From: an uncultured delta proteobacterium
Lineage (GTDB): Bacteria > Desulfobacterota > Binatia > UBA9968
Direction: 5' to 3'
Length of the DNA: 33,391 nucleotides
Assembly (NCBI GenBank): GCA_963840855.1
Contig: CAWJBB010000077.1
Coordinates: forward strand, 1 to 33,391
The notes under the pieces are model-generated. The model did no database searches. It was not told the origin of the DNA and saw only the letters and a program-made list of their open reading frames with translations. The position numbers and the translations under genes are program-made. Of this stretch, positions 190-17,539 are shown in pieces; the stretch's first letter is position 1; each line of letters begins with the position of its first letter.

Positions 190-256
190 GATTGAAGGCT
201 GCGATATAAATCTTGGCTAAGATTCAGTCGTAGGAGAAATCAGTTCAATCCTGGCA
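190..256. repeat. Junction site copy 1 (GATTGAA...GGAGAAATCAGTTCAATCCTGGCA)
   Basis: 226-256 is identical (31/31) to 15658-15688; lies just past the stop codon of the SBP gene. Confidence 0.85.
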
Positions 257-269
257 GCGCTGCTGGTTT

Positions 270-1238
270 TCACTTAATCACTTTATCTGCTCTCGCCAGC
301 ACGTTAGGCGGGATCGTCAGGCCGATTTGCTTGGCGGTTTTCAGATTGACGATGAAGAGTAATTTAGTTGGGCGCTCCACGGGGATTTCGCCTGCCTTGG
401 TTCCTTTGAGAATCTTGTCGACAACCCGGGCCACTTGCCGGGCGATGTCCGAGTCGTTCGCACCATAGCTCGCCAAAGCTTCCTCCGTGCTTCCTGTGCG
501 CGCGTGGAATATGGTGGGGAGCCGCTTGGCATTTGCGGCCTGGATGATCTCTTTATAGTGCGCCGTGGGTTGGCCGCCGGGAATCGCAAGAAAAGCGTCA
601 ACGTCACTCAGCGCTTTCAATGCTTGGATTATCTCCTGGCTGGTGCGCGTCTCTCGCTGTACAAGCGTGATGCCGAGTTTTGGCGCGGGGTCCCGGGCGG
701 CCTCCACTCCTTGCTTGGGCGAATCGTCGCGCGGGTCGTACATCACCATTACTCGGCGAACTCTTGGCGCCACCTCTTTCAAAAGCTCCAGCCGTTTGCC
801 CGACAGCTCCGGATACTCAAAGGTCATCCCAGTGGTATTGCTACCAGGACGAGCCAGACTCATAACTAGGCCGGATGCCACAGGGTCACCTGGTGTTATA
901 AAAACAATTGGCAGATCAGTTGAGACTTGGCGAATCAACGTTACCAGTCGCGAGCCGATGGCGAAGAACAGCCGAATGCGCTGCTGCATCACCCGTTCAA
1001 CCACGGCTCGTTCATTCGCTCGGTCGTCCCTTGAGACGCGTCCTTCGACAATCACTATGGCCTGTTCCGAGTAGCCGAGGTCCCGAAGCCCGTGCTTAAG
1101 GCCAGCCACAAGTTCAGAAAACCGAGGCTCTTCCGGCGCGCCGAGCACTCCAATCCGAGCACCACTCACTTGGCCCAGAGCTGGACTAACGGAAAGCAGC
1201 ATTAAGAAAGTCGATAACAGAGATCTCATTCGCCTCAT
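270..1238 (-). CDS. ABC transporter substrate-binding protein (ABC_sub_bind / periplasmic binding protein type I)
   Basis: Signal peptide; motifs DPVASGLVxSLARPGxNxTG, GKRLELLKE and C-terminal NLKTAKQIGLTIPPNVLARADKVIK; start ATG 1238 or 1229. Confidence 0.9.
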   Translation of the reverse strand: MRRMRSLLSTFLMLLSVSPALGQVSGARIGVLGAPEEPRFSELVAGLKHGLRDLGYSEQAIVIVEGRVSRDDRANERAVVERVMQQRIRLFFAIGSRLVTLIRQVSTDLPIVFITPGDPVASGLVMSLARPGSNTTGMTFEYPELSGKRLELLKEVAPRVRRVMVMYDPRDDSPKQGVEAARDPAPKLGITLVQRETRTSQEIIQALKALSDVDAFLAIPGGQPTAHYKEIIQAANAKRLPTIFHARTGSTEEALASYGANDSDIARQVARVVDKILKGTKAGEIPVERPTKLLFIVNLKTAKQIGLTIPPNVLARADKVIK

Positions 1239-1338
1239 TTTGTTTCCGAATACCAAACCTGTCCTGAGCAAATGCGAACAGTTTCAGTGGTCCCCGCAGC
1301 TACATCTGTCGTATCTTTAGGCGGAAGGCAACACGTTC

Positions 1339-2568
1339 TTACCGGCGCAATGGAATCATGAGCAAGCCGCTTGCTGCCATGAGCGCAAGCGCGCCTCCTG
1401 CGAGAAACGGAGCCGCCGGACCGTACCAATCCCAGAGTAATCCTGCAAGCATACTGGCAGGAAAAGCCACTATTCCGAGCGCAGCGTTGAAGATTCCGTA
1501 GGCTGTACCGCGGAGGTGCTCAGGAACTAAATCGGCTACTAACGCGCTAGAAGCTCCTAGAAACGCTCCATAGTAGAGGCCGTATCCAGTGTAAAGAATC
1601 CAAACGTGCCACCATGCCGACGCAAAGGCAAAGCCAATGTAAATCAGAGCGTAGATAACCCACCCTGCCAATATCAAGCCACGCCGCCCCATAGTGTCAG
1701 AGAGAGCGCCCCCCCTTGTCGAGGTAAGAGTAACGACAAGGTTGAAGACAGCAACGACGAGAAAAATTTCAACTGTCGAGAATCCGAGCGTCTGGGCTCG
1801 GAGCATGAGAAAGGCATCGCTAGAGTTACCGAGTGTGAAGATAGTTAGGACCACGATGAAAGCCCAGAAACGGCTGTCCATTTGCGACCAGGCCAGGCGA
1901 GGCGAACCATTCAATGGCTTCGGCTGCTCCTCGACCCATTTTGCCAGCACCCCGACCGCGGCAAGGCCGGGAAATACCGCGAGCAGCACAAGCCATTGAT
2001 AACTTCCCCGAGTGAGCGCCACTGCGTCCTGCTGGCTTAGGTAGACTACGGCCGCCGCGATAAGCAATCCAATCACTGCGCCCGCCTTATCCATTGCCTT
2101 ATTGAAGCCGAATGCGCGACCTCGCATTTCAGGCGGAGTAACATCTGCGATCAAAGCATCCCGAGGCGCCGTACGGATGCCTTTGCCGACCCGATCGAGG
2201 AATCGGACAACAAGCACTAGTCCCCAAGAAGTGGCAAAGTAGAGTAGTGGTTTGGTGAAATTGGAAAGACCATAGCCCCATAGGGCCAAGGCTTTTTTGT
2301 GGCCGATGCGGTCCGAGAGATGGCCGGAAACGAGTTTAAGTAAAGTCGATGTGCTTTCAGCGATTCCTTCGATAAGTCCGATGACCGTAGTCCTAACTCC
2401 CAACACATTAGCTAAGAACAACGGCAAAGTTCTGACTGCAACTTCGCTTGAGAGGTCGTTTAGGAGGCTAACCACCCCCAGCGCGCGCACCGTCGGATCT
2501 AACTGAGCTGGTTTCTGATTGGCGATGCTACCTATAGCAACGCTATGCTCAGAAGGGACACTAGGCAT
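1339..2568 (-). CDS. MFS transporter
   Basis: About 12 hydrophobic segments; motifs GHLSDRIGHK and DRVGKGIRTAPRDALIAD. Confidence 0.9.
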   Translation of the reverse strand: MPSVPSEHSVAIGSIANQKPAQLDPTVRALGVVSLLNDLSSEVAVRTLPLFLANVLGVRTTVIGLIEGIAESTSTLLKLVSGHLSDRIGHKKALALWGYGLSNFTKPLLYFATSWGLVLVVRFLDRVGKGIRTAPRDALIADVTPPEMRGRAFGFNKAMDKAGAVIGLLIAAAVVYLSQQDAVALTRGSYQWLVLLAVFPGLAAVGVLAKWVEEQPKPLNGSPRLAWSQMDSRFWAFIVVLTIFTLGNSSDAFLMLRAQTLGFSTVEIFLVVAVFNLVVTLTSTRGGALSDTMGRRGLILAGWVIYALIYIGFAFASAWWHVWILYTGYGLYYGAFLGASSALVADLVPEHLRGTAYGIFNAALGIVAFPASMLAGLLWDWYGPAAPFLAGGALALMAASGLLMIPLRR

Positions 2569-2818
2569 ATCGGATCCTATCCCACTTAAACATCACTGTG
2601 CAATTTAGCTGCGGGGTGTCTGTTACTCCTTCTAAATTCTGAGCAGCTGACAGCCCGTGTTCAACTGCGAGGCCAAGCGGCATTCGCCGGGCTGCACGCT
2701 GGTATCAGCGGCTCCTAAACTTCCTATGGGCTACGTTGTTAGTGCGAGCCGGATTGCTGATAGAAGGATGATTCTGGCGGGATACCGCTTGGCCGATCTG
2801 CTGACGCGGATACTCAAA

Positions 2819-2856
2819 CTTTGATAGACGAAGAAATCAGTTAGTTCAATCTTAGC
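2819..2856. repeat. Junction site copy 2 (right arm, variant)
   Basis: tttgatagacgaagaaatcagttagttcaatc resembles tttgttagaccgagaaatcaatttaatt at 4112-4139 and the copy 1 right arm. Confidence 0.6.
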
Positions 2857-2905
2857 GACTTCTCGCGGAGCGGGCTTGAGAACGATGCGAGGTGCGAACG
2901 GAGTA

Positions 2906-3652
2906 TTATTTCATGAAGGAACCCTCCGTGATCGTCTGGTTTCCGCCGGCTTCTATCGCCAACACCTCAAACAGTTGCTCCCCTGGGGCGAGAGATTGGA
3001 CGAATTGTGGTGTAACCGTCACACACATCGATAAGCTGGCGGGGACGGTGACGATGGTGCACGGGATGTTGGCCGGGACAGTGACCTGAAACGCGCCGAC
3101 GATGACTTGGTAGCCGACGATGTTGATTGGTAGACTCGTTAGCGAACCTGCGGGGGCGTTCCAGCTGATGACGAGGGAGTTACCATTTAGCACTGCGCGG
3201 ACATTGAAGGGCCCGTCCGGAATAGCGTGCGAGAGCGTCGCCGTGCCCACGATCCTTTCTCCGTCAACCGTCTTGCCCACGAGGTCATAGTCCCCCGCTG
3301 GGAACTGCGCCAAAAGCTCCTCGAGCGGGACGTCGGCCAGGTCCGGCTCAGCGCCCTCGAAGAACAGCTCGGTAAGGCCGAGATCCTTGTAGGGCCCTTT
3401 GCCCTTGACCTCGAAGATCTTGCGCCCATTCGGGTTGACTATCTTGAACTCCTTCCAGTCTTCTCCGTCGAGGAAGACGTGAACGCCCAGATCACCCAGT
3501 TCGCTAGCCGAGGAGTTGAACTCGAAGAAGATCTTCGCAATGTCGAAGGAGATGCCCTTTTTCTTTGCCCGAGCCTCTGTGGCAGCGGCCGTCAAGATAA
3601 TAGCGGCCATTGCTACCGAAAAAACGTACAACATACGCATGTGTCTCTTCAT
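2906..3652 (-). CDS. Secreted hypothetical protein with Fn3-like C-terminal region
   Basis: RBS aggaga; signal peptide; C-terminal PxNVRA...LVISWNAP...GYQV is Fn3-like. Confidence 0.75.
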   Translation of the reverse strand: MKRHMRMLYVFSVAMAAIILTAAATEARAKKKGISFDIAKIFFEFNSSASELGDLGVHVFLDGEDWKEFKIVNPNGRKIFEVKGKGPYKDLGLTELFFEGAEPDLADVPLEELLAQFPAGDYDLVGKTVDGERIVGTATLSHAIPDGPFNVRAVLNGNSLVISWNAPAGSLTSLPINIVGYQVIVGAFQVTVPANIPCTIVTVPASLSMCVTVTPQFVQSLAPGEQLFEVLAIEAGGNQTITEGSFMK

Positions 3653-3759
3653 TTTGATCTCCTGTCCAATTGTTAATCTTAAGGAACCGCCTAACCATTT
3701 CGGCTTACCGGCGGCGGGATAAGGAAGCCGACATGGAGGGTGTTAAATCATCCCCGCTG

Positions 3760-3843
3760 TCAGGTGTAGTCGGTAGAAAAGACGGAAGAACATGCCAGGG
3801 TGGATAAACATACGATGGGCCGAGTGACCGGACTGATTTTCAT
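3760..3843 (-). CDS. Possible 27-aa small ORF or gene remnant (MKISPVTRPIVCLSTLACSSVFSTDYT)
   Basis: Strong RBS gggagg before ATG; TTGACA about 120 bp upstream on the minus strand (3967-3962). Confidence 0.3.
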   Translation of the reverse strand: MKISPVTRPIVCLSTLACSSVFSTDYT

Positions 3844-4078
3844 GGTGCACCTCCCTTGGGGGCAACGTTAGCGGAGGGAGTCAGTGTGGCCGCCTATCCC
3901 AGACAGCTCTTAGACCAACTTAGACCAGAATTGCACTTAATATCCCTCTCTTACGAAAATCTTGTCAAGCGGCTATTGGGTGAAAAATTGCTGCTGCTCT
4001 GGCGTCCTCAGGCTATCAGCCCGCAGCCTATTTCCGTCTTGAGACCCGTCGCCAGGCTCTCCAATTCCGTTGAAATTG

Positions 4079-4139
4079 AATTGAACGACCCATCCGGCAA
4101 ATCTTAAAGGATTTGTTAGACCGAGAAATCAATTTAATT
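4079..4139. repeat. Junction site copy 3
   Basis: aattgaac...aaatctt...gatt...gagaaatcaatttaatt; same 61-bp span as copy 1 (190-250). Confidence 0.65.
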
Positions 4140-4235
4140 ACATGGTTGACATTCCCCGTGTGCGTCACGCCACGATGAACATCGGCCACAATTCAGTGGC
4201 AAAGTTTAAGAGAAAAATGCTGTTGACTGGGCCTC

Positions 4236-4870
4236 GGTTCCAGCGGCGCCATGACGATATGGGTGGTGCCGACTTTGTATGCACTCTTCAGTTGCAAAAA
4301 CGACATCGCCGGCGCGGTTACGCTTGAGCCGTTCGTTGGCGATCGCTGGACGGGTGATATAGCGGCAGAGATGCTCCAGCTGTTGGCGCTGATCGGCGCC
4401 CCAGCGCACCGCCGCATGGAGGCTGAAGCCGTGGAGTTTAGCGCACAGGTCCTGCGATGATGGTTTGTCTGGGCTCGGCACGCTTTGCAGACTCAGCACC
4501 TTCTGGCCTGCTCGCGGCTCGAGCGCGATGCGGTAGCTGCACGAGGCCGCTTGCAGGGTCAAAAGCGAGCTTTCCCTATCCGCTTCGGCGAGGTAGGTGC
4601 GGTCTTGCTCTTCGATGACAATCCCCTGCTTGGTCAACAATCGCATGATGCGCGTGATGATCTTAGCAAGTAAGACCTGCAGTTCTTCGCTAGTCGGGGC
4701 AGCCACCTCATGGAAACCCGCCCCCGCCCTCGCTGTGCCGATAGACGCCGTCGAGCACCAGGCAGTGCAGATGAATATTCAAAATTGGCGGCGGAGCCGA
4801 AGCGCTGGATGAGCGTGACCGCACCCGTGTTGGCTTGGCGGCGTTTCAGTCCCGCCTGCTTGCCCAGGAA
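4236..4870 (-). mobile_element. IS91-family (HUH, rolling-circle) transposase internal fragment, frameshifted pseudogene
   Basis: Joined frames give GAVTLIQRFGSAAN-LNIHLHCLVLDGVY (HUH), GFSLHAAVR, LEHLCRYITRPAIANERL and LKSAYKVGTTHIVMAPLE; +1 shifts near 4782 and 4298; both ends missing. Confidence 0.85.
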
Positions 4871-4994
4871 AAGTTTTCCGGTCAACCCTGAGTCGCGCTT
4901 TTATCCATGTTGACATTCAGTTTTACCCGGGATAGGGGAGGACAAGTTCCGTACGTTCGACGAGATTGGAACCCTTAACCATTTGGGAGGAACC

Positions 4995-6071
4995 ATGAAC
5001 AAAATTGTGACAACCACGGTGGTTTTTCTTGTTCCACTGGTCCTGGCAGTATTTTCGCGGGCTCCTGTGTCGGCCCAGGAGACGGCGGGCCAAATCCTAG
5101 CGAAGCTTAACAAACTACCGGGGGAAAAACGGCAGCAAGTCCTGGCGGAAAAGGCCAAGTCCGAGGGGGAGGTGACCTTCTATAGCTCCTTGCAGTCGTC
5201 CCAGTTGGAGCCTATCGCGCAACTGTTCAGCAAGCGGTATCCTTTCGTGAAGGTCAACACCGCGCGCATGTCAGGCGGGGCGCAGATCAACAAAATTCAA
5301 ACAGAATACCGGGTCCGCCGATATCTGGTGGACGTCATAAACGGGGGCGCGGAACAGGCGGCCGCTATCAAAGGGTTCGGGGCAGCTGACGCCTATGACT
5401 CGCCGCAACGCCAATTTTTCCCCCCCGAGCTTAAGGACAAAGAAAGCTACTTTACCTCGCTGTATATTACTCCCATGGTCCTGGGGTACAACACCAAGCT
5501 GGTTAAACCGAATGAGGCTCCCAAAAAATACGAAGATCTGCTCAACCCTAGATGGAAAAACGGCATGTTTCTCGACGATGAGGCGTTTGAATGGTACGCG
5601 GTTTTGCTCCGGCATTTCGGCAGAGAGAAGGGCCTGCAGTATATGAAGAAGCTTGCGCAACAGGATATCTCCATGCAGCGGGGGAGAACCGGTCAGACAC
5701 AACTGCTCGTAGCCGGCGAGCGGCCCATTGGTATCTACCTCTCAGGCCATACGGTGCTCGATCTCAAAGATAAGGGCGCCCCGCTCGGCTGGGTTGCGCT
5801 CGATCCTTATCTTTCTCAGGCGAACATGATCATGTTGGCGCGCCATGCGCCCCATCCTTATGCGGCCGCACTGTTCATCGATTGGAGCCTCTCAGAGGAA
5901 GGGCAGGGGATGATCACAACCTTTGGCCGTGTTGTGGCACGCAACGGGGTTAAGCAGAGATTCCCGGAACTGATTGAAAAGAAGAGCACCTTGGTCGACG
6001 CGGAGATGATGGGTCCCATTCTGGCCGAGACTTCCAAAGAATTCAGGTCGATCTTCATGCCCGGGCGCTGA
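4995..6071 (+). CDS. Extracellular solute-binding protein (Fe3+/polyamine/thiamine-type SBP)
   Basis: RBS ggagg; signal peptide; AKSEGEVTFYSS, YNTKLV...PKKYEDLLNPRWK, APHPYAAALFIDWSLSEEGQ. Confidence 0.9.
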   Translation: MNKIVTTTVVFLVPLVLAVFSRAPVSAQETAGQILAKLNKLPGEKRQQVLAEKAKSEGEVTFYSSLQSSQLEPIAQLFSKRYPFVKVNTARMSGGAQINKIQTEYRVRRYLVDVINGGAEQAAAIKGFGAADAYDSPQRQFFPPELKDKESYFTSLYITPMVLGYNTKLVKPNEAPKKYEDLLNPRWKNGMFLDDEAFEWYAVLLRHFGREKGLQYMKKLAQQDISMQRGRTGQTQLLVAGERPIGIYLSGHTVLDLKDKGAPLGWVALDPYLSQANMIMLARHAPHPYAAALFIDWSLSEEGQGMITTFGRVVARNGVKQRFPELIEKKSTLVDAEMMGPILAETSKEFRSIFMPGR

Positions 6072-6311
6072 GAGCGCTTAGAATTTCAGACGCCTCGGTT
6101 TTTTCCCCTGCCCCTCTGTGCGTAACGGCGTGGAGCGCCCGAAATGATGCCTGAAGCGGGTAGACCCTAGCCCTCGCTCGAACTCAGAGCGAGCGGCTCC
6201 GTCGGCTGGCGTTGGCAACCGGTTTCGGCTCCTCAGATTGTCTGGAATAGATCGAATCGCTGCGCCGGGGAGCGCGGCGGGGCGCGGGTCGGTACGCCTG
6301 AATGGCTGTCT

Positions 6312-6595
6312 TCACTTGATCACTCTGTCCGCTCTCGCCAGCACATTCGGCGGAATCGTCAGCCTGATCTGCTTCGCTGCTTTCAGATTGATGATGAACT
6401 CGAACTTCTTCGGCTGCTCTACGGGAAGATCGGCGGGCTTGACGCCTTTGAGCATCTTATCGACGTACGTGGCGGCACGTCGGAATAAGTCGGCACGATT
6501 CGGTCCATATGCCATGAGACCCCCAGCCTCGGTGAATGTGGACGATGAGTATATCGCTGGCAGCCGGTTCTTGGCCGCGAGGTCCACAATCAATG
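6312..6595 (-). pseudogene. 3' fragment of an ABC_sub_bind SBP gene
   Basis: Only the C-terminal ~93 aa (IVDLAAKNRLPAIY...IPPNVLARADRVIK) match the full copies. Confidence 0.85.
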
Positions 6596-6677
6596 CTAGA
6601 TAGACCCTATGCGTGACCCTACAGATCGAGATTGACCTCTTTCCCGAACCGATATGCACGATCAATCTTCGCGCATG

Positions 6678-7760: not shown

Positions 7761-7788
7761 CGGATCTCGCTCGCGTGACCCAATGGAC

Positions 7789-8639: not shown

Positions 8640-9825
<1,186 letters not shown>

Positions 9826-9840
9826 GCTTGTTCCTGTCGC

Positions 9841-9933
9841 TTATTCCTTACGAAGCACCGGACGTTTGAACATTCCAATTCCTTTGATCTCCACTTCGAC
9901 GAGATCGCCGCCCTGAAGAAAATTGGGCGGGTC
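9841..9933 (-). pseudogene. C-terminal remnant of a fumarylacetoacetate hydrolase family gene
   Basis: Manual translation DPPNFLQGGDLVEVEIKGIGMFKRPVLRKE* matches the typical FAH C-terminus; stop lies 15 bp before pobA. Confidence 0.65.
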
Positions 9934-9983
9934 GGTCCATCAAGGTGTCGCGATATTTTCCAAAGAGCATCGGAACTTTTAAA

Positions 9984-11210
9984 TTAACTGGCTGTATGAT
10001 GGATCGAGGCCAATACCTGCTCGACGATCGCGTCGGCAAACTGCGGATCGTTGATGTGGCAGTCGAACTCGGTCACTGGCACGGACGCCGGCAGGGCCTT
10101 CTTCAGCGCGTCCGAGAACACCGGGCACAGCGACGGATCGTGCAGATGCCCCTCGGGGCTGTCGTGGTGCGAGAAGCCTTTTAGCGGCACGAAGAACGAG
10201 ACCGGCCCCTTGGCGCTGGCGATCAGGCCACCCAGGTGCTTCGCCAACTGCTGCAGTTCGCCAGCCTCGGTGCGCACCGCGGTAATCGCCTGGTTGTGGA
10301 TGTGATAACGTTTGCCCGGGAATTGCGTCTTCGCCATGTCGATGGGTCCGGACAGCATGAAGTCCGCGTTGCCCGGCGCGAAGATCACCGGCACGCCCTT
10401 CTCGAGTGCCGCTTTGGCGCGGTCCGGGCCGGCGCTGAACAGGCCGTTGTTCAGGTAATCGTTGATCTCGACCAGCGACACGTCGACGACCGCGGCGACG
10501 TCGCGCTCGCGCACGATCTGGTCCATCGCCATGCCGCCGGTACCGAGCGTGTGGAACACCATCACCTCGTAGCCCTTGCCCTCCAGCGACTTGCGCACGC
10601 GCACGGTGCAGCGATCGGTCGTGCCGAGCGTCGTCATCGCGATCAGCGGCTTCGGTTCGGTGCGCACCGGCGAATAGCTCTTCGCCATCGCGGCGGTGGC
10701 GATCGCCGCGTTGCGGAACGCGTCGCGGGTGATGCTGTTGAGCCCGGCGATGTCGCATACCGGGTTCACCATGATGATGTCCTTCGCGCCGACGAACGGC
10801 CGGGTGAAGCCCGATGCCATCGTCGACACCATCACCTTCGGCAGGCCGTACGGGAACGCCTGCATCACGACGCTGCCGAGCGTGGTGCCCATCGATCCGC
10901 CCACACCGATGATGCCGGCAATGCCATGCTTCGCCTGGGCCTCCAGCGCGCACTTGACGGCGCCTTCGATCATCACCGCCTGGCACTTGCCTTCATGACG
11001 CAGGTCGCGAACCTCCTGGATCGTCTTGCCGGCCGCTGCGGCGATGGCCTCCGGCGCGATCTCGACGTTCTTATCGGTCGACTCGCGGATGCTGGCGTCA
11101 AGGTGAACCACGTCCACCCCTTCGGCCTCCAGTGTCTGCCGGACGAATTGCGCTTCCACCGCCTTGGTGTCGAGCGTCACGATCATCAGAACCTTGGGTT
11201 TGCTGCTCAT
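9984..11210 (-). CDS. Tm-1-like ATP-binding domain / UPF0261 protein
   Basis: RBS aaggaga; TLDTK, GVGGSMGT, PYGLPKVMVST, CDIAGLNSI, VFHTLGTGG and CHINDPQFA motifs. Confidence 0.88.
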   Translation of the reverse strand: MSSKPKVLMIVTLDTKAVEAQFVRQTLEAEGVDVVHLDASIRESTDKNVEIAPEAIAAAAGKTIQEVRDLRHEGKCQAVMIEGAVKCALEAQAKHGIAGIIGVGGSMGTTLGSVVMQAFPYGLPKVMVSTMASGFTRPFVGAKDIIMVNPVCDIAGLNSITRDAFRNAAIATAAMAKSYSPVRTEPKPLIAMTTLGTTDRCTVRVRKSLEGKGYEVMVFHTLGTGGMAMDQIVRERDVAAVVDVSLVEINDYLNNGLFSAGPDRAKAALEKGVPVIFAPGNADFMLSGPIDMAKTQFPGKRYHIHNQAITAVRTEAGELQQLAKHLGGLIASAKGPVSFFVPLKGFSHHDSPEGHLHDPSLCPVFSDALKKALPASVPVTEFDCHINDPQFADAIVEQVLASIHHTAS

Positions 11211-11582
11211 GGCCTGTCTCCTTGTCGAATGAAAGCACTTCAAATCGCCGGCGCCGACGGCAATCGGCACCGACAACTCGTCTCGGGGCCGTTCAGGTGA
11301 TAGGAATTTGCTTTTTGGAGGCCGACCCTAATAACTGAACACCGGCTCCATCAGCTGCTTGCAAGGCCGCTATCAACAGCTCGATAGCGAGTCGGACAGA
11401 AAAAGCAGCCTCCATTCGCCGTGTCGTGCGAACCCTATCCGATAAGCTGGTCTTATACAATCTTAATCGGCTTGAGTGAGAGGGGATCAACCTTGCCTCC
11501 AGGCTAGGGTGCAGAAAACGGAACGTCGTAGGAAGTCATGAAGCATGACGCGCGCCCAGCAACCGGCGCTATTCGCGGAACA

Positions 11583-11663
11583 CGGCTGCTGCGCTTCGGA
11601 TATCACTCCAACAGCAAGCAGTACCACTGCAATCAGGATTGATGACAGACCAGCTTTCTTCAT
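11583..11663 (-). pseudogene. 5' (signal peptide only) fragment of an ABC_sub_bind SBP gene
   Basis: MKKAGLSSILIAVVLLAVGVISEAQQP versus MKKAAVPSILVAVVLLALGVIAEAQQA at 16706; similarity then stops. Confidence 0.8.
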
Positions 11664-11765
11664 CCATCTATCAAGAACGAGGAAATTTTCGAGACGTGAA
11701 CCAAATTGGAATGAAAAACCCAGCTTCGGAGGGTAGAGACTGGCTTCGCTTTGGAAGCGAGACCG

Positions 11766-11829
11766 TCAGCACCAAAACCGGTCTATCTTTTGTCACTGTA
11801 ACGGTGTCTTTTTCCTTGCGAGATGAACT
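11766..11829 (+). repeat. 64-bp direct repeat, copy A (ends in a junction-site left arm)
   Basis: 55/64 identical to 14116-14179 by manual alignment. Confidence 0.9.
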
Positions 11830-12208
11830 GACTGATTTGATCCCCAATTTGTTGGAAAGAGTCTGGACGTGACTTGTCGAGTGTTCTAGGCCGAGCCGAC
11901 GAATAGTATTCCGTCAACTTAAGCTCGACGCCAATCTATAACCTAGCATCTATCACAACTATGGAAAAAAAATATTAGACATTGTTCTTATTTGCGAATA
12001 AAAGATGTCGAGGTCTCGTCCTTCAAGAATTCATTTGTCGAGGGGGATGGTCCACGATGGCAAGATTATCTTCCGGAGCGCCGCCGCTGAAACAGCTCAG
12101 CAGAGGTCTAAGACTGATAGGGCGACGTAAACGAAAGTATTGTTTCCGTGTCACTCAGTGAAAGAACCAACAGTCTGCGCCTAAAAGGAAGGAGGGTTTC
12201 GCAAGAAT

Positions 12209-13897
12209 ATGGTTAAACTGATTCTTGATAACTGTCATCGTGCCGTTCGAGCACAATTAGTGCTGGGATTGATAGCCACCGCGGTCACTGTTGCCGCAGC
12301 CGTTGCTCCCGCGGCCGCTGATAAGATGGATGACTCTCCGGACCTTGTTCTGTACGATGGGAAGATTTCCACGGTCGACGCGAACAACTCGACCGTCGAG
12401 GCGATTGCGATTCGCGACGGGACGATCATCGCGAGAGGCGGGAGCAGACAGGTCCGGGCGCTAGCGACGAAGAGCACCCGGCTGATCAACCTCAACGGCC
12501 GCCGAGTGCTGCCCGGCCTGATCGATGGCCACCTTCACGGAATGCGCAACGCCTATCATTGCTTCACCCAAACGGTTCGTCTGGACCTTGTCACCTCCCG
12601 GACAGAGGCCCTTGCCGCCTATGCGGCGAAGGCCGCCTCGCTCTCGGCAGGCCGATGGATCTGGACGACATCCGGCGGCTGGAACCTTAACCAGCTCGAC
12701 ACCCCCATGGTCTTCACCCTCAACGAGCTCAGCGCCGCGGCGCCGAACAATCCGGTCTGGATTCAGGGCAGCGGCGTGACCGGAACTCGGGTGAATCAGG
12801 CGGCGCTGACTGCGCTCGGGCTGAGTGCGGGTGACCCAGGAGTGGTGCTGGATGCCAACGGTCAGCCCACCGGTCAGTTGAACGCGCCGGCGACCACCTT
12901 GGCAAACCAGGCGATCATCGCCCAGCTCGACAGCCTGACCTTGGAGCAGCGGGCGGCGTGTCTGGCGCGCTTCATGCGGGAAGTCAACCGCCGCGGCATG
13001 ACCGCTTGGAAGGATGCCGGTGGCAACCAAGCCCCATGGGGCGGCGGAGCGGCTGAGATCGGCGATCGTTTCAATGTGCGCGAGCCCACGATGCACCTCT
13101 ATCGAAGCGGCGGGTTCACGGTCCGTATCGCCTATCACGACATGAGCAACTACCAGGGGTTCCAGCAGGTTCTGCTCGACACCCGCACCAGGGTCGGGCC
13201 TCTCGGCGACGATGTGTTCCGCTACATGGGTCCCGGTGAGGACACGATGGCGACCGATACGGACTACCCTGACTTCACGCGCTACGCCGCCTCCAAGCGG
13301 TTCAGCGTCGAGACTCACGTGGGGGATCTGGACGCAATCCTCACTGGGTTCGAAGCGGGAAACGCCGTGTATCCAATCTCCCAGTTGATCTGGATGATCG
13401 CACACCCCGATAACGGTCAGCCAAACGACACGCAGCTTGATCGCGCATCGGCGCTAGGGATCGGTTACCACTTGACATTCTCCGGGGTGAGGAACGGGCA
13501 AACAGGTCCGCGGTTTCGTAGCACGATGGAGAGCGGCGTACGCATGTGCCTGGCCTCGGATGCGATGAACGTGTCGCCGTATGCGCCGTTCCAGAACCTG
13601 TGGTATGTCACGACTGGCCAAACGCTTCTTCCGGGTGTGCCGGGAGTACCCGTGGCCCAGCGGCTCACGCGCGAGGAGGCACTTCGCCACGCCACCGTCG
13701 AGTGCGCTTGGTTCCTCGGCCAAGAGGGCAGGCTGGGGTCACTAGAAGTCGGCAAGCACGCCGACCTCATCGTGCTGAGCGACGACTACTTCGCCGTGGC
13801 GGACAGCGCGACCAAGGACATCCGCTCCGTACTTACGGTCGTTGCCGGCCGCATTGTCTACGCCGACGCGGAGTATACCGGCCTGGAACAAAACTAA
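12209..13897 (+). CDS. Secreted amidohydrolase 3 (YtcJ-like) family protein
   Basis: Signal peptide; DLVLYDGKISTVD, LPGLIDGHLH (HxH), ASDA, GSLEVGKHADLIVL, TVVAGRIVY. Confidence 0.9.
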   Translation: MVKLILDNCHRAVRAQLVLGLIATAVTVAAAVAPAAADKMDDSPDLVLYDGKISTVDANNSTVEAIAIRDGTIIARGGSRQVRALATKSTRLINLNGRRVLPGLIDGHLHGMRNAYHCFTQTVRLDLVTSRTEALAAYAAKAASLSAGRWIWTTSGGWNLNQLDTPMVFTLNELSAAAPNNPVWIQGSGVTGTRVNQAALTALGLSAGDPGVVLDANGQPTGQLNAPATTLANQAIIAQLDSLTLEQRAACLARFMREVNRRGMTAWKDAGGNQAPWGGGAAEIGDRFNVREPTMHLYRSGGFTVRIAYHDMSNYQGFQQVLLDTRTRVGPLGDDVFRYMGPGEDTMATDTDYPDFTRYAASKRFSVETHVGDLDAILTGFEAGNAVYPISQLIWMIAHPDNGQPNDTQLDRASALGIGYHLTFSGVRNGQTGPRFRSTMESGVRMCLASDAMNVSPYAPFQNLWYVTTGQTLLPGVPGVPVAQRLTREEALRHATVECAWFLGQEGRLGSLEVGKHADLIVLSDDYFAVADSATKDIRSVLTVVAGRIVYADAEYTGLEQN

Positions 13898-13914
13898 AAG
13901 ACACTGACTGAACG

Positions 13915-13948
13915 CCGGCTCTCGCGTACAGCAGAGAGCCGGTGTCTT
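13915..13948 (+). terminator. Hairpin after the amidohydrolase, possible terminator
   Basis: ccggctctc / gagagccgg 9-bp stem; weak U tract. Confidence 0.45.
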
Positions 13949-14115
13949 CGGGATTGGAACAGAACCGAAGTCTAGGCGCTTTCCTTGCGCGAATTTTGGG
14001 CGCAGGAAAATGATCGGCAGATTCTTGAGCAAAAGAGCTCTCCGCATTGGGTTGTTCACACTTCAACTCAATCCCGTTGCTCATAATTCGTATTACCGCG
14101 GTCGAACTGAGGCTT

Positions 14116-14179
14116 TCAGCACCAAAATCGGTATATCTTTTGATACTCTAATAGGGTCTTTTTCCTTGCGCGATGAACT
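14116..14179 (+). repeat. 64-bp direct repeat, copy B
   Basis: 55/64 identical to 11766-11829. Confidence 0.9.
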
Positions 14180-14198
14180 ACCGGAATTCAGCGCAGTC

Positions 14199-14259
14199 TG
14201 TTGAACCCCAAAATGTTATCAGGGATTTAATTGAAGGAGAATTCAGTTCAATTCTGGCA
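14199..14259. repeat. Junction site copy (ttgaac...ggattt...aggagaattcagttcaattctggca)
   Basis: Right arm matches aggagaaatcagttcaatcctggca at 23/25. Confidence 0.8.
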
Positions 14260-14400
14260 TCGCGGCTAAGCGTTTCACTGTCTAATTTCGCGGTGCTTTG
14301 CTGTTGCGCCTATCCTGCCGCTTGACTTTTTAGCGTGTCAAGAATAGAAGGCCCTTCTGCTCGTCGAGTGCCTTTACTACAAACTACAGGGAGGGTTTAT

Positions 14401-15516
14401 ATGTTGTTTCGCCATTCTACCAACCCTACTTCGTTTTTCTCCATCCTTATGGCTGCGCTCATTTTCTCGCTCTCTATGGCGGGGGTTGCTACGGCGCAGG
14501 GCAACACCAGTCTGGGGATAGATGCGCTTCAGAACAACACCACGGGCGAGTTCAACACCGCCAGCGGAGCCAGTGCGCTCTTTAGCAACACCACGGGCAG
14601 CCTCAACACCGCCAGCGGAGTCGGTGCGCTCGTTAGCAACACCACGGGCTTCCAAAACACCGCCAGCGGAGTCCAGGCGCTCTTTAGCAACACCACGGGC
14701 GAGTTCAACACCGCCAGCGGAGTCAATGCGCTCTTTGGCAACACCACGGGCAGCCTCAACACCGCCAGCGGAGTCGGTGCGCTCGTTAGCAACACCACGG
14801 GCTTCCAAAACACCGCCAGCGGAGTCCAGGCGCTCTTTAGCAACACCACGGGCGAGAACAACACCGCCTTTGGAGTCAGTGCGCTCTCTTTCAACACCAC
14901 GGGCAACAACAACACCGCCATCGGGGCCGGAGCCGATGTGACTGCTGGGAATCTGACCAATGCTACGGCTATCGGCTTTTTAGCCGCGGTCAATCTCAGC
15001 AATAAGATCCGGCTGGGAAACAATCAGGTCACGATGATCGAGGGGAATGTGGCGTTTACTGCCAGTTCGGACAAGACCCAGAAGGAAAACTTCCAGCCGG
15101 TCGATGGAGAAGAAGTGCTGGGAAAGATTCGCGGCTTTGAGCTATCGAGCTGGAACTTCATTGGCCACGATCCCAAGAAGTTTCGCCACTATGGTCCCAT
15201 GGCGCAAGACTTCTATGCAGCCTTCGGCCACGACGAATTAGGACAGATCGGCTCGGCGACGACGATCAACTCCGGCGATCTGGCGGGGATTCTTATGATC
15301 GCCGTGCAGGCGCTGGAGAAGCGCACGGCGGAGCTAAAACAAAAGGAGGCGCAGCTTGCGGTGCTGGAATCGAAAGTCGAAGAGCTAAAAGCGAAGTACG
15401 CCTACTTTGAGACTGTGGCGGCGCGGCTGGAGGGGCTGGAGTTGCGACAGAACCACTCGATCCAGATAACAGCCGGGAAAAGCCTCAGCGATAAGATGGT
15501 CGACGTGATGCCGTAA
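14401..15516 (+). CDS. Secreted repeat protein with C-terminal peptidase S74 (intramolecular chaperone) domain and coiled coil
   Basis: RBS ggaggg; signal peptide; NTTG repeats; SSDKTQKENF, HYGPMAQDF, LMIAVQALEKR. Confidence 0.85.
   Translation: MLFRHSTNPTSFFSILMAALIFSLSMAGVATAQGNTSLGIDALQNNTTGEFNTASGASALFSNTTGSLNTASGVGALVSNTTGFQNTASGVQALFSNTTGEFNTASGVNALFGNTTGSLNTASGVGALVSNTTGFQNTASGVQALFSNTTGENNTAFGVSALSFNTTGNNNTAIGAGADVTAGNLTNATAIGFLAAVNLSNKIRLGNNQVTMIEGNVAFTASSDKTQKENFQPVDGEEVLGKIRGFELSSWNFIGHDPKKFRHYGPMAQDFYAAFGHDELGQIGSATTINSGDLAGILMIAVQALEKRTAELKQKEAQLAVLESKVEELKAKYAYFETVAARLEGLELRQNHSIQITAGKSLSDKMVDVMP
14536..14925 (+). repeat. Intragenic tandem repeat, 8 x 51 bp (17 aa), with 153-bp higher-order period
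   Basis: aacaccacgggc recurs at 14536, 14587, 14638, 14689, 14740, 14791, 14842 and 14893. Confidence 0.95.
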
Positions 15517-15610
15517 GTAAATAGTAGTAGTCAAAAAAATTTTGATTTCCCTGGAGGGTCTTGAACTTTACGGACAGAAGGTTATTCCTCGAATGAGAAG
15601 ACCAGAATTA

Positions 15611-15688
15611 GCCTGAGATTGAACTAATCGACGCAACAGTCGCGTCTTGTAGGATTAAGTCGTAGGAGAAATCAGTTCAATCCTGGCA
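15611..15688. repeat. Junction site, most complete copy (gcctgagattgaacta...tcagttcaatcctggca)
   Basis: Inverted arms GATTGAACT / AGTTCAATC; 31 bp identical to 226-256. Confidence 0.85.
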
Positions 15689-15695
15689 TTTTCCA

Positions 15696-16706
15696 TCACT
15701 TGATTACCCTATCCGCTCTCGCCAGCACATTCGGCGGAATCGTTAGCCCGATCTGCTTCGCTGCTTTCAGATTGATGATGAACTCAAACTTTGTTGGTTG
15801 CTCGACAGGGAGTTCAGCCGGGTTGGAGCCCTTTAGGATCTTGTCGACATAGGTCGCTGCGCGGTAATACAGATCGCCTGTGTTGACGCCATAGGCCATG
15901 AGGCCCCCTTCCTCGACAAATTGCCTTGTCGGGTACATTCCTGGCCAACGATTCTTTAAGGCAAGTTCCACTATGCGCTTCGAATGAAGAGTCGTTAGTG
16001 GATCGAGCATGGTCAGGAGCGCGTTCAGCCGCGCTTTTTTCATCCCTACGAATGCAGTGTCAATATCTTCACCGGAGCGAACCTCTAGGGAATGAAGCTG
16101 TAGCCTATAAGCCTGGGCCGCCACCTCTATTTCCTTGAACGCGTTCGCCGCCGGTATGCTCAAAGTGCGCCCCCAACGTTGAACGGCGGCATCCGTTGGA
16201 TTCCAGAGCACGCCTATACGGGTAATCTTGGGCAAAGTCTCTTTTAGCAGCTCCAACCGCTTACCGCTCAGCTCCGGCAGCAGTACTGATAAGCCCGTGA
16301 CGTTTCCTCCAGGTCTCGCCAAACTGGCAGCTAGACCCGTGCCGACTAGATCTCCGGTTGTTAGTACGATGGGAATAGTCTTAGTTACTTGCTGGGCCGC
16401 ATAGGCGCTTCCAGAGGTCGTGGTCACAATGACATCGACCTTGAGACTTACCAGCTCGGCTGCGAGTTCGCGTAGCCGATCGAATTTTCCCTCGGCATAG
16501 CGGTACTCAAAGACAATGTTTTTCCCCTCAACATATCCCAACTCGCGCAGCCCCCGCAGAAATGACTCCAAATGGGGTTGGTTCCGGGAGCCAAAAAAGA
16601 GCACACCTATGCGGTGCGTCTTTCCCGCTTGCTGCGCCTCGGCTATCACTCCAAGAGCAAGCAATACCACTGCAACAAGGATTGATGGCACCGCAGCCTT
16701 CTTCAT
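15696..16706 (-). CDS. ABC transporter substrate-binding protein (ABC_sub_bind)
   Basis: Signal peptide; GLRELGYVEGKNI, SLARPGGNVTG, C-terminal IPPNVLARADRVIK. Confidence 0.92.
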   Translation of the reverse strand: MKKAAVPSILVAVVLLALGVIAEAQQAGKTHRIGVLFFGSRNQPHLESFLRGLRELGYVEGKNIVFEYRYAEGKFDRLRELAAELVSLKVDVIVTTTSGSAYAAQQVTKTIPIVLTTGDLVGTGLAASLARPGGNVTGLSVLLPELSGKRLELLKETLPKITRIGVLWNPTDAAVQRWGRTLSIPAANAFKEIEVAAQAYRLQLHSLEVRSGEDIDTAFVGMKKARLNALLTMLDPLTTLHSKRIVELALKNRWPGMYPTRQFVEEGGLMAYGVNTGDLYYRAATYVDKILKGSNPAELPVEQPTKFEFIINLKAAKQIGLTIPPNVLARADRVIK

Positions 16707-16810
16707 TGCGTACCTCGTTTCGAGCGTTATGTATCACGCGGACGAGAATAAAGAAAAGGTAATTTACGCCGAAAGGCGACAGGAAGTCGTCGAGTAGGAA
16801 GGTCGGATTT

Positions 16811-16830
16811 CTCCTGAGATTGAACTGAAT
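16811..16830. repeat. Junction site left arm
   Basis: cctgagattgaact at 16813-16826 is identical to 15612-15625. Confidence 0.7.
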
Positions 16831-16849
16831 GACTCCTCAATGCGGTCTC

Positions 16850-17449: not shown

Positions 17450-17539
17450 ATCGACTCGCGTTAAACGCGCTTGCTCATGGCAGGCCATTTATTCCCGCCA
17501 CCTTACATTAGAATGGAGCGCTTCAACAGGTAAAGGAGT

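Follow-up and report, generated by a model that had tools for sequence, protein, structure and literature searches.

Is the short intergenic site that recurs through the accessory half of this locus a recombination site that assembles captured genes? A sequence-only reading of the window, by which we mean the whole 33,391-nt stretch of contig CAWJBB010000077.1 (assembly GCA_963840855.1; uncultured delta proteobacterium, Binatia, UBA9968), had proposed this on the basis of seven co-oriented copies separating unrelated gene modules. The repeat consists of an L box (AGGATTGAACTGAWTTCTCC), a variable centre of ~30 nt and an R box (GCGTCGWTCAGTTCAATC), which together span ~75–110 nt as an imperfect palindrome with an outer stem of 12–15 bp and a bulged-out TTCTCC. 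The L box lies ~27 nt past the stop codon of the upstream gene, and after the R box come ~100 nt of conserved, promoter-like sequence and then the next gene. A profile made from 21 full copies in the genome and run on the window alone, on the gene-sense strand (nhmmer), supported six of the seven proposed copies, all of them intergenic and co-oriented.

Four copies, all on the minus strand, are highly significant. The best, at 15608–15690, is full, with L box, centre variant B and R box (77.7 bits, E 1e-23; CM 90.3 bits, E 6e-18); it lies 2–8 nt past the stop of the binding-protein gene at 15696–16706, and its hairpin fold has z-scores of −3.0 and −3.2 on the two strands. The copy at 4067–4138 is full but degenerate (48.1 bits, E 2e-14; CM 63.7 bits), with a fold not better than shuffles (z −0.7). 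No binding-protein gene lies upstream of it; it is found 68 nt past a Y2_Tnp remnant and ~415 nt before the ORF at 3652–2906. Past the stop of the binding-protein gene at 270–1271 and 180 nt from the contig end, the copy at 180–260 (37.4 bits, E 5e-11; CM 40.7 bits) combines an intact L box (233–256 on the plus strand) with a decayed right arm. The fourth, at 14223–14263 (32.4 bits, E 2e-9; CM 37.9 bits, E 7e-6), has an L box with 2 mismatches and a decayed right half, the CM alignment extending to 14157; it lies upstream of an opposite-strand S74 gene, and the 60 nt upstream of it match the flank of copy C50:77722.

Two further minus-strand copies are marginal, yet above shuffles: 2820–2858, a degenerate L box with a 3-nt insertion ~50 nt past the stop of the ORF at 2906–3652 (11.3 bits, window E 0.0065, genome E 1.4), and 16810–16840, an R-box-only remnant (profile positions 55–85; 11.5 bits, window E 0.0055; repeat family D4) just upstream of the gene at 15696–16706 and adjoining a binding-protein 3′ remnant at 16868–16899. 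When 100 dinucleotide-shuffled versions of the window were searched with the profile, a score of 11.3 bits came up in only one; in the whole-genome search both weak copies had E 1.2–1.4. The seventh proposed copy, at 11812–11854, gave no profile match at any threshold and was called falsely because of a separate 92-nt direct repeat in which it sits (D5; 11747–11838, partner 14097–14188, 77% identity, flanking the copy at 14223). The 31 identical bp reported for two copies were recovered between 226–256 and 15658–15688, and a third near-identical right arm matched at 22 of 24 positions. At up to 3 mismatches, the 24-nt right arm matched the window at 233, 14236 and 15665, all on the plus strand, with 0.00 matches expected from 100 dinucleotide shuffles. 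The inner aatctt...gatt dyad, which had been described as part of the site, proved to be one of several centre variants and not a constant feature.

Around these copies, two PF04392 (ABC_sub_bind) solute-binding protein genes lie on the minus strand at 270–1271 (333 aa; Pfam 172 bits) and 15696–16706 (336 aa; 172.3 bits), the former with an MFS transporter as module-mate (1339–2568, minus strand, 409 aa; MFS_1, 186 bits). Copies 4067–4138 and 2820–2858 bracket a 248-aa ORF without a Pfam family (2906–3652, minus strand), and the Y2_Tnp remnant adjoining the first of them is an IS91-family transposase (4206–4706, minus strand; PF04986, 35.3 bits, partial). PF04392 genes also left a 3′ remnant at 6308–6603 (minus strand; direct repeat D2, 71% to 266–467), a stretch that matches dozens of paralogues in congeners, and a 5′ signal-peptide remnant at 11587–11663 (minus strand; direct repeat D7, 86% to 16630–16706). 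On the plus strand are an amidohydrolase module (12209–13897; Amidohydro_3, 177 bits) and, between the copies at 14223 and 15608, the Peptidase_S74-domain protein (14335–15516; 38.4 bits) with its 51-nt tandem repeats (D1). The island edge holds a short tyrosine-recombinase remnant (16764–17012, minus strand; PF00589, 19.6 bits, E 8.5e-4, under the curated cut-off) and the 3′ piece of a tRNA gene (17404–17450, plus strand), an att-like boundary. ARAGORN found no whole tRNA gene in the window, and soil-run contigs fitting from 17404 or 17416 onward have tRNA 5′ halves in front. Core synteny begins at this tRNA piece: the core half of the window is collinear with congeners at 84–96% and, as previously stated, carries no copy past 17 kb, and the island half, like the array on contig C69, has no syntenic counterpart in four congeners.

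Across the genome, the profile search returned 83 significant copies, spread over 15 of 93 contigs: 47 are full, 24 L-only and 12 R-only. Of the 83, 80 have another copy within 10 kb, and orientation is the same in 64 of 64 neighbouring pairs. The modules measure 0.7–6.8 kb and contain a conserved promoter-like region. A 20-mer of the repeat is present in 17 of 41 related genomes (reversed control, 0), in many Ca. Binatia-titled MAGs as well, and is retained in at least 14 genera. Arrays occur also on contigs of up to 1.97 Mb. The repeat family appears to be lineage-specific and intergenic. Its position at module boundaries in accessory DNA, first proposed from the window, holds genome-wide and in relatives, in same-orientation arrays; copies are confined to accessory arrays and are not scattered through core intergenic DNA. 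The genus carries several further high-copy short repeats.

The modules are, however, not mainly the unrelated ones that had been proposed: the repeat is tied to one paralogous family, the PF04392 binding proteins. An ORF or remnant of this family precedes 33 of the 83 copies, the commonest distance to the profile start being 16 nt. Combined with the final ~35 nt of the PF04392 genes, the repeat forms a conserved ~200-nt junction between co-oriented accessory modules, running from the PF04392 3′ end through the repeat and the promoter-like stretch to the 5′ end of the next gene. The entire intergenic stretch is kept between paralogues with only ~50–58% amino-acid identity. Since a 12-gene PF04392 array in the congener G002 lacks the repeat entirely, the family can also form arrays without it.

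Such a junction might be no more than a cis-acting signal of the binding-protein genes that is copied along with them and has no role in recombination, either a 3′-UTR hairpin (transcript stabiliser, processing site or insulator), an operator of the downstream promoter, or both. The fixed position just past the stop codon and the orientation in the direction of transcription would fit, as would the stable hairpins of the best copies (z −3.0 to −4.5), in which the unpaired TTCTCC, the most invariant part of the repeat, would suit recognition by a protein or RNA. The L box can also stand alone ~50–70 nt upstream of a gene, and in a lone L box of G002, AATTCTCC is complementary to GGAGAATT in the ribosome-binding region of the next gene, which encodes a recombinase. 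We nevertheless consider a signal without any recombination role improbable. The ORF/BLAST test found no PF04392 ORF immediately upstream of 50 of the 83 copies. Rfam returned no family for the window at gathering scores, nor for three strong copies at E ≤ 1, and no covariation supporting the hairpin was found, the stem being nearly invariant, with compensatory change in 2 of 10 pairs and a W/W test at p 0.24. Without a U-run behind it, the hairpin does not qualify as a canonical intrinsic terminator. A cis-acting signal also leaves unexplained the module breakpoints, IS insertion and recombinase unit found at the boxes.

These breakpoints fall into two classes, in a small sample of 6 + 11 pairs, several of them non-independent. 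Among 3486 anchored pairs in the L-box comparison, six were one-sided: five had 140 to >449 nt in common upstream and diverged 0–9 nt past TTCTCC, and one had >450 nt in common downstream, starting within the L box. In the R-box comparison, 11 of 8384 anchored pairs had at least 100 nt in common downstream, and in nine of these similarity began only 5–10 nt ahead of the R box. A three-gene module of ~4 kb, present at both C69 and C85 with different neighbours, starts within an L box and ends directly past GTTCAATC of the next R box, with 96.3% identity over 1303 nt and then 99.96% over 2352 nt; because the genome is a MAG with an estimated contamination of 8.27%, some cases of the same module in different contexts could be repeat-mediated misassembly. 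A Xer-like recombinase unit starts exactly at the ATTGAAC of the L box in five of its seven copies, and on C35 an intact two-gene IS91-like element, a relative of the window remnant at 4206–4706, interrupts a repeat copy between GCGTCGTT and TCAGTTCAATC. Between copies in L034, a MAG with Binatia in its title, lie a TENA/THI-4 gene, a methyltransferase and small unknown ORFs, the TENA gene with ~30-nt binding-protein 3′-end remnants on both sides.

Copies are clustered and polar, modules vary between congeners, and the similarity of recently copied modules stops at L- or R-box edges, in agreement with the proposed module boundaries. What did not hold is the idea of a single recombination site, as the breaks occur at two different boxes and not at one crossover point, and no dedicated recombinase co-occurring with the site was found in the genome or its relatives. 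The gene-capture array therefore survives in part: a boundary site, polar arrays and matching breakpoints speak for it, while the missing dedicated recombinase, the two boxes and the mostly related modules speak against it. The outcomes that had been named as refuting the proposal did not occur: core intergenic DNA is free of scattered copies, the weak copies score above shuffles, and synteny with congeners is lost in the island but kept in the core half. We tentatively favour, at somewhat short of an even chance, the view that the repeat is a conserved cassette junction where modules are duplicated, swapped and captured by recombination, probably driven by homology. The repeat looks like a hot spot for swapping modules, mostly orphan solute-binding-protein genes, and not like a classical integron site. 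Recombination between junction copies would tandemly amplify, delete, swap and capture modules, most simply by homologous recombination or gene conversion anchored in both conserved boxes, with Campbell-type entry of circles bearing one junction as a further part; new genes would substitute the body of a binding-protein gene while its flanks stay. That breaks occur in two classes is easier to reconcile with homology than with one crossover site. Weighing against it, boxes of 18–24 nt are short for RecA-type exchange unless flanking conserved DNA assists, and the invariance of TTCTCC and the retention of the 20-mer in at least 14 genera hint that a specific protein or RNA recognises the repeat, something that plain homology does not call for. 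The hairpin probably separates transcription units too, because every downstream module has its own promoter-like region.

Another explanation sees the repeat as a selfish, non-autonomous palindrome (MITE or REP-like) that transposes by means of an IS-encoded enzyme and simply accumulates in accessory DNA. Its terminal inverted repeats of 12–13 bp (GGATTGAACTGA / TCAGTTCAATCC) are in keeping with this, and in copies without an upstream binding-protein gene the palindrome reaches TTAACCC...GGGTTAA. The right end of the intact C35 element (GGTTAAAACCTAT) resembles the outer palindrome arm, Y2_Tnp genes or remnants adjoin copies on C35, C65, the window and G003:C16, and the other short repeats of the genus would suit a selfish origin as well. 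We hold this to be quite unlikely. Transposing MITEs normally insert in both orientations, whereas all 64 neighbouring pairs share one orientation and the copies run in the same direction as the genes beside them. The fixed spacing to the upstream stop codon favours co-inheritance with the gene over insertion, and inspection by eye of a few junctions showed no target-site duplication. All 10 Y1_Tnp (RAYT-type) matches are more than 30 kb away from any array, and co-occurrence of Y2_Tnp with the element in family f1 (G000 and 24 relatives, counts including the unpublished G009 and G015) is weak: both in 10 genomes, the element only in 5, Y2_Tnp only in 4 and neither in 6.

Homology at the junction also has to be weighed against the copies being divergent attC-type sites and the arrays CALIN (attC clusters with no integrase close by), with an integron integrase from elsewhere in the genome recombining folded single strands. 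The length of the repeat falls within the attC range of 57–141 nt, and its build is attC-like, with two stems, a one-arm bulge and a variable tip. The inverted ends ATTGAAC...GTTCAAT are conserved and retain the AAC/GTT triplets; as had been noted, they lack the RYYYAAC/GTTRRRY ends, each being one base off. Copies in an array all point one way, with co-oriented genes, and are highly alike within one genome, resembling sedentary integrons. A bona fide integron integrase is encoded on C1 (TIGR02249, 442 bits, cut-off 265) and a partial one on C21, and 11 of 41 relatives have one above the cut-off. In f1 (counts including G009), element and IntI occur together in 9 genomes, the element only in 6, IntI only in 3 and neither in 7, a weak association among related genomes (odds ratio ~3.5 by plain arithmetic). 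According to parts of Cury et al (2016; PMC4889954), CALIN are common and often distant from intI, half of them in IntI-encoding replicons, and promoters are rare in integron cassettes.

The IntI contigs of G000, however, carry no repeat copy, and at the IntI loci of relatives the CM found nothing at nine of ten and only matches of E 0.12–0.45 at the tenth. In three long-contig genomes the nearest L boxes lie 35, 37, 120 and 440 kb away from IntI loci; a fourth, with the element, lacks IntI. In none of five upstream-sharing pairs does the centre move with the upstream gene, and at C69/C85 it goes with the downstream module, the opposite of a cassette made of a gene and its attC. Half copies are frequent (36 of 83), and the cassettes are large with a conserved promoter-like region. 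Integron membership of the repeat was rejected, an integrase never lying beside an array and the centre not following the upstream gene; divergent attC sites are in our view unlikely.

Among known systems, REP/BIME, ERIC and Correia-type repeats are multi-copy, lineage-specific hairpin repeats located between genes, 3′ of genes and inside transcription units, which may act on RNA or be hot spots of recombination or IS insertion. The present repeat has the same traits and may play the same roles, but it has only ~80 copies in accessory arrays instead of a core-wide spread, is strictly polar, is tied to one paralogous family and has no adjacent RAYT-type gene. The pdif (XerC/D-site) modules of Acinetobacter plasmids and the minimal mobile elements of Neisseria exchange modules without a transposase of their own and, as here, consist of discrete, context-switching modules with short conserved sites or flanks at their ends. 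Unlike pdif, the repeat is not dif-like, in line with what had been stated; its L box has no 11-6-11 dyad, and its sites share one orientation instead of alternating. Unlike both systems, its flank takes in the 3′ end of a gene and promoter-like DNA. IS91/ISCR rolling-circle elements are gene-capture agents with GTTC as the IS91 target tetranucleotide. The boxes contain GTTC, one copy holds an IS91-family element and remnants lie beside others; however, the genome has a single intact element, cross-genome co-occurrence is weak, and the observed junction (GCGTCGTT / IS / TCAGTTC) is no clean GTTC joint. The CALIN attC sites, as far as they are described in parts of PMC4889954, share with the repeat imperfect palindromes of similar length between co-oriented genes, one direction per array, likeness within a genome, several array loci in a genome with an integron integrase elsewhere, and conserved AAC...GTT ends, with a variable middle between them and unpaired bases in one of the arms. 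Set against that description, the repeat has ends one base off the consensus and arrays away from the integrase, breaks at both boxes, has a centre that follows the downstream module, is frequently a half site, and bounds large modules with promoter-like DNA in which one gene family is dominant.

We located the copies of the element, an imperfect palindrome made up of an L box, a variable centre and an R box that lies between gene modules, in the island half of the window by motif search and by profile. The 24-nt right arm gave three matches at up to 3 mismatches (positions 233, 14236 and 15665, all on the + strand) against a shuffle expectation of 0.00. A profile built from 21 full copies elsewhere in the source genome and then run on the window alone identified four strong copies on the − strand, at 15690–15608 (77.7 bits), 4138–4067 (48.1 bits), 260–180 (37.4 bits) and 14263–14223 (32.4 bits), together with two weak ones on the same strand at 16840–16810 (11.5 bits) and 2858–2820 (11.3 bits), both with a window E of ~0.006; a later covariance model (CM) agrees with the profile on these copies. 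The profile backs six of the seven sites that the sequence-only reading had proposed as recombination sites or element ends of a cassette array. The seventh, 11812–11854, had zero profile match and is instead part of a separate 92-nt direct repeat (11747–11838 and 14097–14188). The weak copies stood up to shuffled controls, as 11.3 bits was reached by 1 of 100 dinucleotide shuffles of the window. Two further statements of that reading were borne out: the core half is free of profile matches, and all supported copies point one way, namely along the sense strand of the two PF04392 (ABC_sub_bind solute-binding protein) genes they follow. Three genes inside the window lie on the opposite strand (4983–6071, 12209–13897 and 14335–15516). 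The last of these encodes a Peptidase_S74 domain and contains seven 51-nt tandem repeats (17-aa units, 14471–14975), which show very high summed depth in contigs of soil sequencing runs. The island ends at a tRNA-gene 3′ fragment (17404–17450) with a decayed integrase (16764–17012) beside it; contigs from other soils have complete 5′ tRNA halves here, and on contig C399 of the congener G002 a Y2_Tnp gene adjoins the same core edge.

The source genome (G000; 7.1 Mb, 93 contigs, 56% G+C, with the window as the complete 33.4-kb contig C77) is a MAG whose estimated contamination is 8.27%, and part of the differences in context may therefore stem from assembly. Genome-wide, the 24-mer gave 51 matches at up to 5 mismatches and the profile 117 non-overlapping matches, 83 of them at E<0.001. 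These 83 copies (47 full, 24 with the L side only and 12 with the R side only) sit on 15 of the 93 contigs, and 80 have another copy less than 10 kb away, most often at a spacing of ~1.1–1.2 kb. Neighbouring copies are co-oriented in 64 of 64 pairs, and in the eight mapped arrays the inter-copy genes point the same way as the element. A PF04392-like ORF directly precedes 33 of the 83 copies (20 near full length, 13 remnants), in a genome with 62 near-full-length PF04392 loci by tblastn. Other modules consist of 971-aa and 1979-aa ORFs, each followed by a 127-aa ORF, and of several two- or three-gene units. The PF04392 family can form arrays without the element, since a tandem array of ~12 such genes in G002 (C277:26–41 kb) holds 0 copies and has spacers of 50–60 nt with GAGCAGN-type heptamer repeats. 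The element serves as a marker of variable regions in these MAGs and is a likely cause of their assembly breaks: many integrase and array contigs terminate at repeats, and the window itself begins 180 nt from a copy.

The element extends well beyond this genome. Allowing up to 2 mismatches, a 20-mer was found in 17 of 41 genomes (G000 and 40 relatives, including the unpublished G009), the relatives being distributed over families f1, f2 and f3 as 14/24, 2/5 and 0/11, and the reversed 20-mer gave 0 matches in every genome. An exact 19-mer scan with one genome per species returned 82 stretches, 80 of which were made into loci, where our own arithmetic predicts ~9 chance matches; five loci had no profile match and four matched over the seeded ~21–24 nt only (Planococcus, Parabacteroides). 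Most source titles were Candidatus Binatia or 'uncultured delta proteobacterium' MAGs, and several were Pyrinomonadaceae/Blastocatellia, Verrucomicrobiia or Chloroflexia (a 1.76-Mb contig). PF04392 homologues lie beside the copies in 9 of 10 checked loci, the exception being the Binatia locus L034; the nine include all eight checked loci from MAGs labelled as other phyla. Short contigs may have been mis-binned in the soil MAGs. Within the collection searched, literature queries pairing Binatia with integron, or attC with Binatota, returned nothing, and the PF04392 papers, as listed, were not about such arrays.

On the gene-sense strand, ~27 nt separate the stop codon from the L box (AGGATTGAACTGAWTTCTCC), which is followed by a centre of ~30 nt in at least three variants and by the R box (GCGTCGWTCAGTTCAATC). 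An outer stem of 12–15 bp pairs GGATTGAACTGA with TCAGTTCAATCC, WTTCTCC forms a one-sided bulge on the 5′ arm, and many copies have a short second stem (e.g. GACG/CGTC). Folded as single-stranded DNA, the two strands of the best copy in the window scored z values of −3.0 and −3.2 against shuffles, and two copies on contig C69 scored −4.4 to −4.5; the decayed window copies folded no better than shuffles (−0.6 to −0.7). RNAalifold was given 58 of 66 unique full copies, eight being left out for large indels or decay (L103:8216, L033:48, L103:2265, L103:14842, L092:5706, window:170, L031:436 and L103:6934), and recovered only the outer stem. Compensatory change occurred in only 2 of 10 pairs, and a W/W test, scored in 40 of the 58 copies, gave p 0.24; the outer stem is almost invariant, and covariation is therefore uninformative. 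The hairpin is followed by no T-run, the AT-rich stem giving way to CTCAGGCTAA or CCTGCG, which does not correspond to an intrinsic terminator with its GC-rich hairpin and U-run. Rfam 15 gave 0 matches at the gathering score in the window and 0 at E≤1 on 2.8 kb with three strong copies. IHF and CsrA sites were compared by eye and set aside for want of a consensus match. A regulatory or RNA role alone would account for TTCTCC in the bulge being the least variable stretch of the alignment, and such a role could also coexist with one in recombination; by itself it offers no explanation for why joints, an insertion sequence and a recombinase unit all fall at the boxes, and as the sole role we regard it as quite improbable.

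In tandem arrays, conservation covers the whole ~200-nt intergenic stretch, comprising the 3′ end of the binding-protein gene, the element and the stretch that follows. Before each binding-protein gene, ~100 nt are conserved and end in an extended −10-like TGATACATAAC, ~20 nt ahead of a GAGG ribosome site and ATG; by eye, we read this stretch as a predicted promoter. A working promoter there would set these modules apart from integron cassettes, which a passage of one source describes as rarely containing promoters (PMC4889954).

We then compared copies in pairs, taking as breakpoints those cases in which the likeness of two copies is confined to a single side. For the L-box anchor, 84 copies had enough flank and gave 3486 pairs, of which six were one-sided and 0 were alike on both sides. 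Five of the six have 140 to >449 nt of upstream gene in common and diverge 0–9 nt after TTCTCC, and the sixth (C69:68177 / C85:101459) is identical over >450 nt downstream from a point within the L box. With the R box as anchor (8384 pairs among 130 copies of the source genome and of retrieved loci), 11 pairs had at least 100 nt in common downstream, with similarity setting in 5–10 nt before the R box in nine of them and 29 nt and 67 nt ahead of it in the remaining two. The three-gene module of ~4 kb on C69 and C85 matches at 96.3% over 1303 nt and then at 99.96% over 2352 nt, with one 612-nt indel; its neighbours differ, and it ends directly after GTTCAATC of the next R box. Module boundaries thus coincide with the site, as the sequence-only reading had proposed, in the six L-box pairs, which include the C69/C85 module, and in nine of the 11 R-box pairs. 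Nor did the congeners refute that reading: synteny is kept along the core half of the window (collinear, 84–96% identity) and not along the island half; the latter and the C69 array gave only scattered gene-length, paralogue-level matches, those for C69 in four congeners being at 68–83%, with one short match at 91%.

At L034, the spaces between six copies hold small unrelated genes, among them TENA/THI-4, a methyltransferase gene and three ORFs with no Pfam family; the TENA gene has ~30-nt remnants of a binding-protein 3′ end on both flanks, the trace that single-crossover entry at a conserved junction would leave. The read search found 24 runs, none with more than 0.23 of the sampled words; contigs of X1, X2, X3 and X16, at 90% likeness, had very high summed depth on repeated parts. 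The many soil-contig 'joints' between copies were rejected as excision or empty sites, their short sides (21–42 nt) and the foreign letters between them pointing to copies in other organisms. The element is a genuine, non-random feature of the whole lineage and marks the joints between modules. As to the mechanism of module exchange, we infer that exchange anchored in conserved sequence fits better than a single-site enzyme, because breakpoints occur at both boxes, half copies are frequent and no recombinase is linked. If the repeat does drive exchange, it would provide a sequence-defined handle on the build-up and reshuffling of a very large orphan solute-binding-protein repertoire, and on the capture of unrelated genes in a large uncultured soil lineage.

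No enzyme could be tied to the element: the sequence-only reading had called for an intact recombinase co-occurring with the site, and none of the IntI (integron integrase), Xer-like, Y2_Tnp or Y1_Tnp candidates examined could be linked to it. G000 encodes IntI at C1:45987–46880 (442 bits against a cut-off of 265), with a partial copy on C21, and both contigs have 0 element copies. Among ten IntI loci of relatives, the CM was blank in nine and gave three weak matches in the tenth (G002:C23); on long contigs the nearest L boxes are 35–440 kb from IntI, and a Chloroflexia-titled genome has the element and no IntI. A scan for RYYYAAC…GTTRRRY over 45 kb around the C1 IntI yielded two palindromic candidates (4 hits, both strands) and no array. 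There (C1:42–47 kb), IntI, a 353-aa ORF, adjoins three tandem tyrosine-recombinase genes (331, 327 and 336 aa) in a layout resembling a recombinase-in-trio, with no recognisable attC-like array. In place of cassettes, an SBP_bac_6 gene, tctB and four tandem TctC-family receptor genes come after IntI on G024:C216. Seven integrase loci of relatives, searched for adjacent repeats, revealed 9-nt GTTCAA tandem clusters and a TctC gene array, and no copy of the element.

The weak CM matches on G002:C23 are L boxes that stand ~50–70 nt ahead of a tandem pair of genes encoding a 307-aa Xer-like tyrosine recombinase. An L box precedes five of seven copies of this gene (one in G000, two each in G002 and G003), and in these five units conservation begins exactly at ATTGAAC, with unrelated upstream flanks. 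The G002 locus (10804–15058) consists of two tandem units, each an L box and then the recombinase gene, with an O-methyltransferase gene in the first unit and a short-chain dehydrogenase gene after the second recombinase; G003:C8 has a matching tandem pair with an L box before each. From their sequence layout, the G002 and G003 units look like small cassettes flanked by L boxes. As a general partner the recombinase was rejected, its gene being present in only 5 of 41 genomes and split into separate ORFs in G000. We also considered whether an undescribed gene-cassette system, independent of integrases, could use the L box as its core site. Promoter-bearing modules between directly repeated L boxes would then be moved by the Xer-like tyrosine recombinase, whose gene, seen intact in G002 and G003 and in split form in G000, would itself travel as an L-box-flanked cassette. 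The second arm of a folded single-strand substrate would come from the R box, the invariant TTCTCC bulge would fix polarity, and soil Binatia, possibly with other phyla, would share a second integron-like platform of independent origin. Taken jointly, we hold this set of propositions to be rather a long shot.

Two other enzyme families were rejected as partners. An IS91-like two-gene element on G000:C35 (32233–34666), encoding a 280-aa tyrosine recombinase (SAM_4 and Phage_integrase) and a 333-aa Y2_Tnp, with ends GGACTAAACC… and …GGTTAAAACCTATCCGT, splits an element copy between GCGTCGTT and TCAGTTCAATC, and a Y2_Tnp remnant adjoins the window copy 4067–4138. Y2_Tnp was found in 15 of 41 genomes (including the unpublished G009 and G015), overlapping only loosely with the element, and the co-occurrence is weak. 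Y1_Tnp (RAYT-type, PF01797) has 10 matches, 0 of them within 30 kb of an array.

Several other repeats were noticed. One family is built of 9-nt units in tandem, (GTTCAANNN)n, often in inverted pairs 25–30 nt apart, and occurs in the window at 24438–24476 and 31737–31766; G000 has 148 clusters of at least three exact units, on most contigs and also in core intergenic DNA. It is dense ahead of the IntI genes of G002:C23 and G016:C86, and has the hexamer TTGAAC/GTTCAA in common with the L and R boxes. A ~120-nt element (~30995–31115; 31-nt inverted arms 30992–31022 and 31097–31127), just after an Xer-like gene (30082–30996), has scores of matches at 77–87% identity in four congeners, many on different contigs. 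A ~145-nt stretch (~18953–19100) recurs on at least 11 contigs of the congener G001 at 75–99% identity, six copies being at 97–99%, and is probably a short mobile repeat. Between an SBP_bac gene and a PF04392 remnant lies a ~136-nt repeat (6173–6308), with at least 14 copies at 78–93% in G002, G003 and G004 and very high summed depth in soil-run contigs.

The element was compared with integrons and with other known systems. The attC core sites are R″ RYYYAAC and R′ GTTRRRY; an adjacent integrase is required of a complete integron and not of CALIN (attC clusters without a nearby integrase), and a cassette is a gene with its own downstream attC, joined at G|TT of R′. The element ends, ATTGAAC…GTTCAAT, contain the AAC and GTT triplets and are one base off the consensus at each end, in line with the sequence-only reading that attC ends are lacking. 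In its fold the element resembles attC, with an imperfect palindrome, two stems, unpaired bases and a variable tip. Unlike complete integrons, its arrays have no adjacent IntI. Contrary to the cassette rule, five of five pairs with a common upstream gene have different centres, and the C69/C85 module brings the centre of the upstream site; joints may also lie inside the R box. That the copies are integron attC or CALIN sites draws real support from the way the site is built and from an integrase being encoded at another place in the genome, and misses three defining tests, namely the core consensus, integrase adjacency (not demanded of CALIN) and the pairing of attC with the upstream gene; we consider it unlikely.

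The dif and pdif sites span 28 bp, a 6-bp spacer separating two inverted arms of ~11 bp, and alternate in orientation around modules. The L box lacks this dyad, with 3 of 8 matches of GGATTGAA to the arm after the spacer, and the 64 neighbouring element pairs do not alternate. REP sequences are short palindromes across core intergenic DNA that flank a Y1 (RAYT) transposase gene, whereas the element is clustered on its 15 contigs, away from all 10 PF01797 matches. MITEs carry terminal inverted repeats, lie in both orientations, duplicate their target site and share their ends with an autonomous partner. The element has inverted termini and a uniform orientation, with no duplication at the few junctions inspected by eye, and the right end of the IS91-like element resembles only its outer arm; a freely transposing MITE is disfavoured because of the strict polarity and the fixed spacing to the stop codon. 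The element belongs to none of the families tested (integron, dif, REP/RAYT and Rfam). Its arrays offer a test case for how cassettes could work with no integron integrase beside them; we read the element as akin to palindromic intergenic repeats and to clusters of cassettes lacking an integrase, both of them known kinds.
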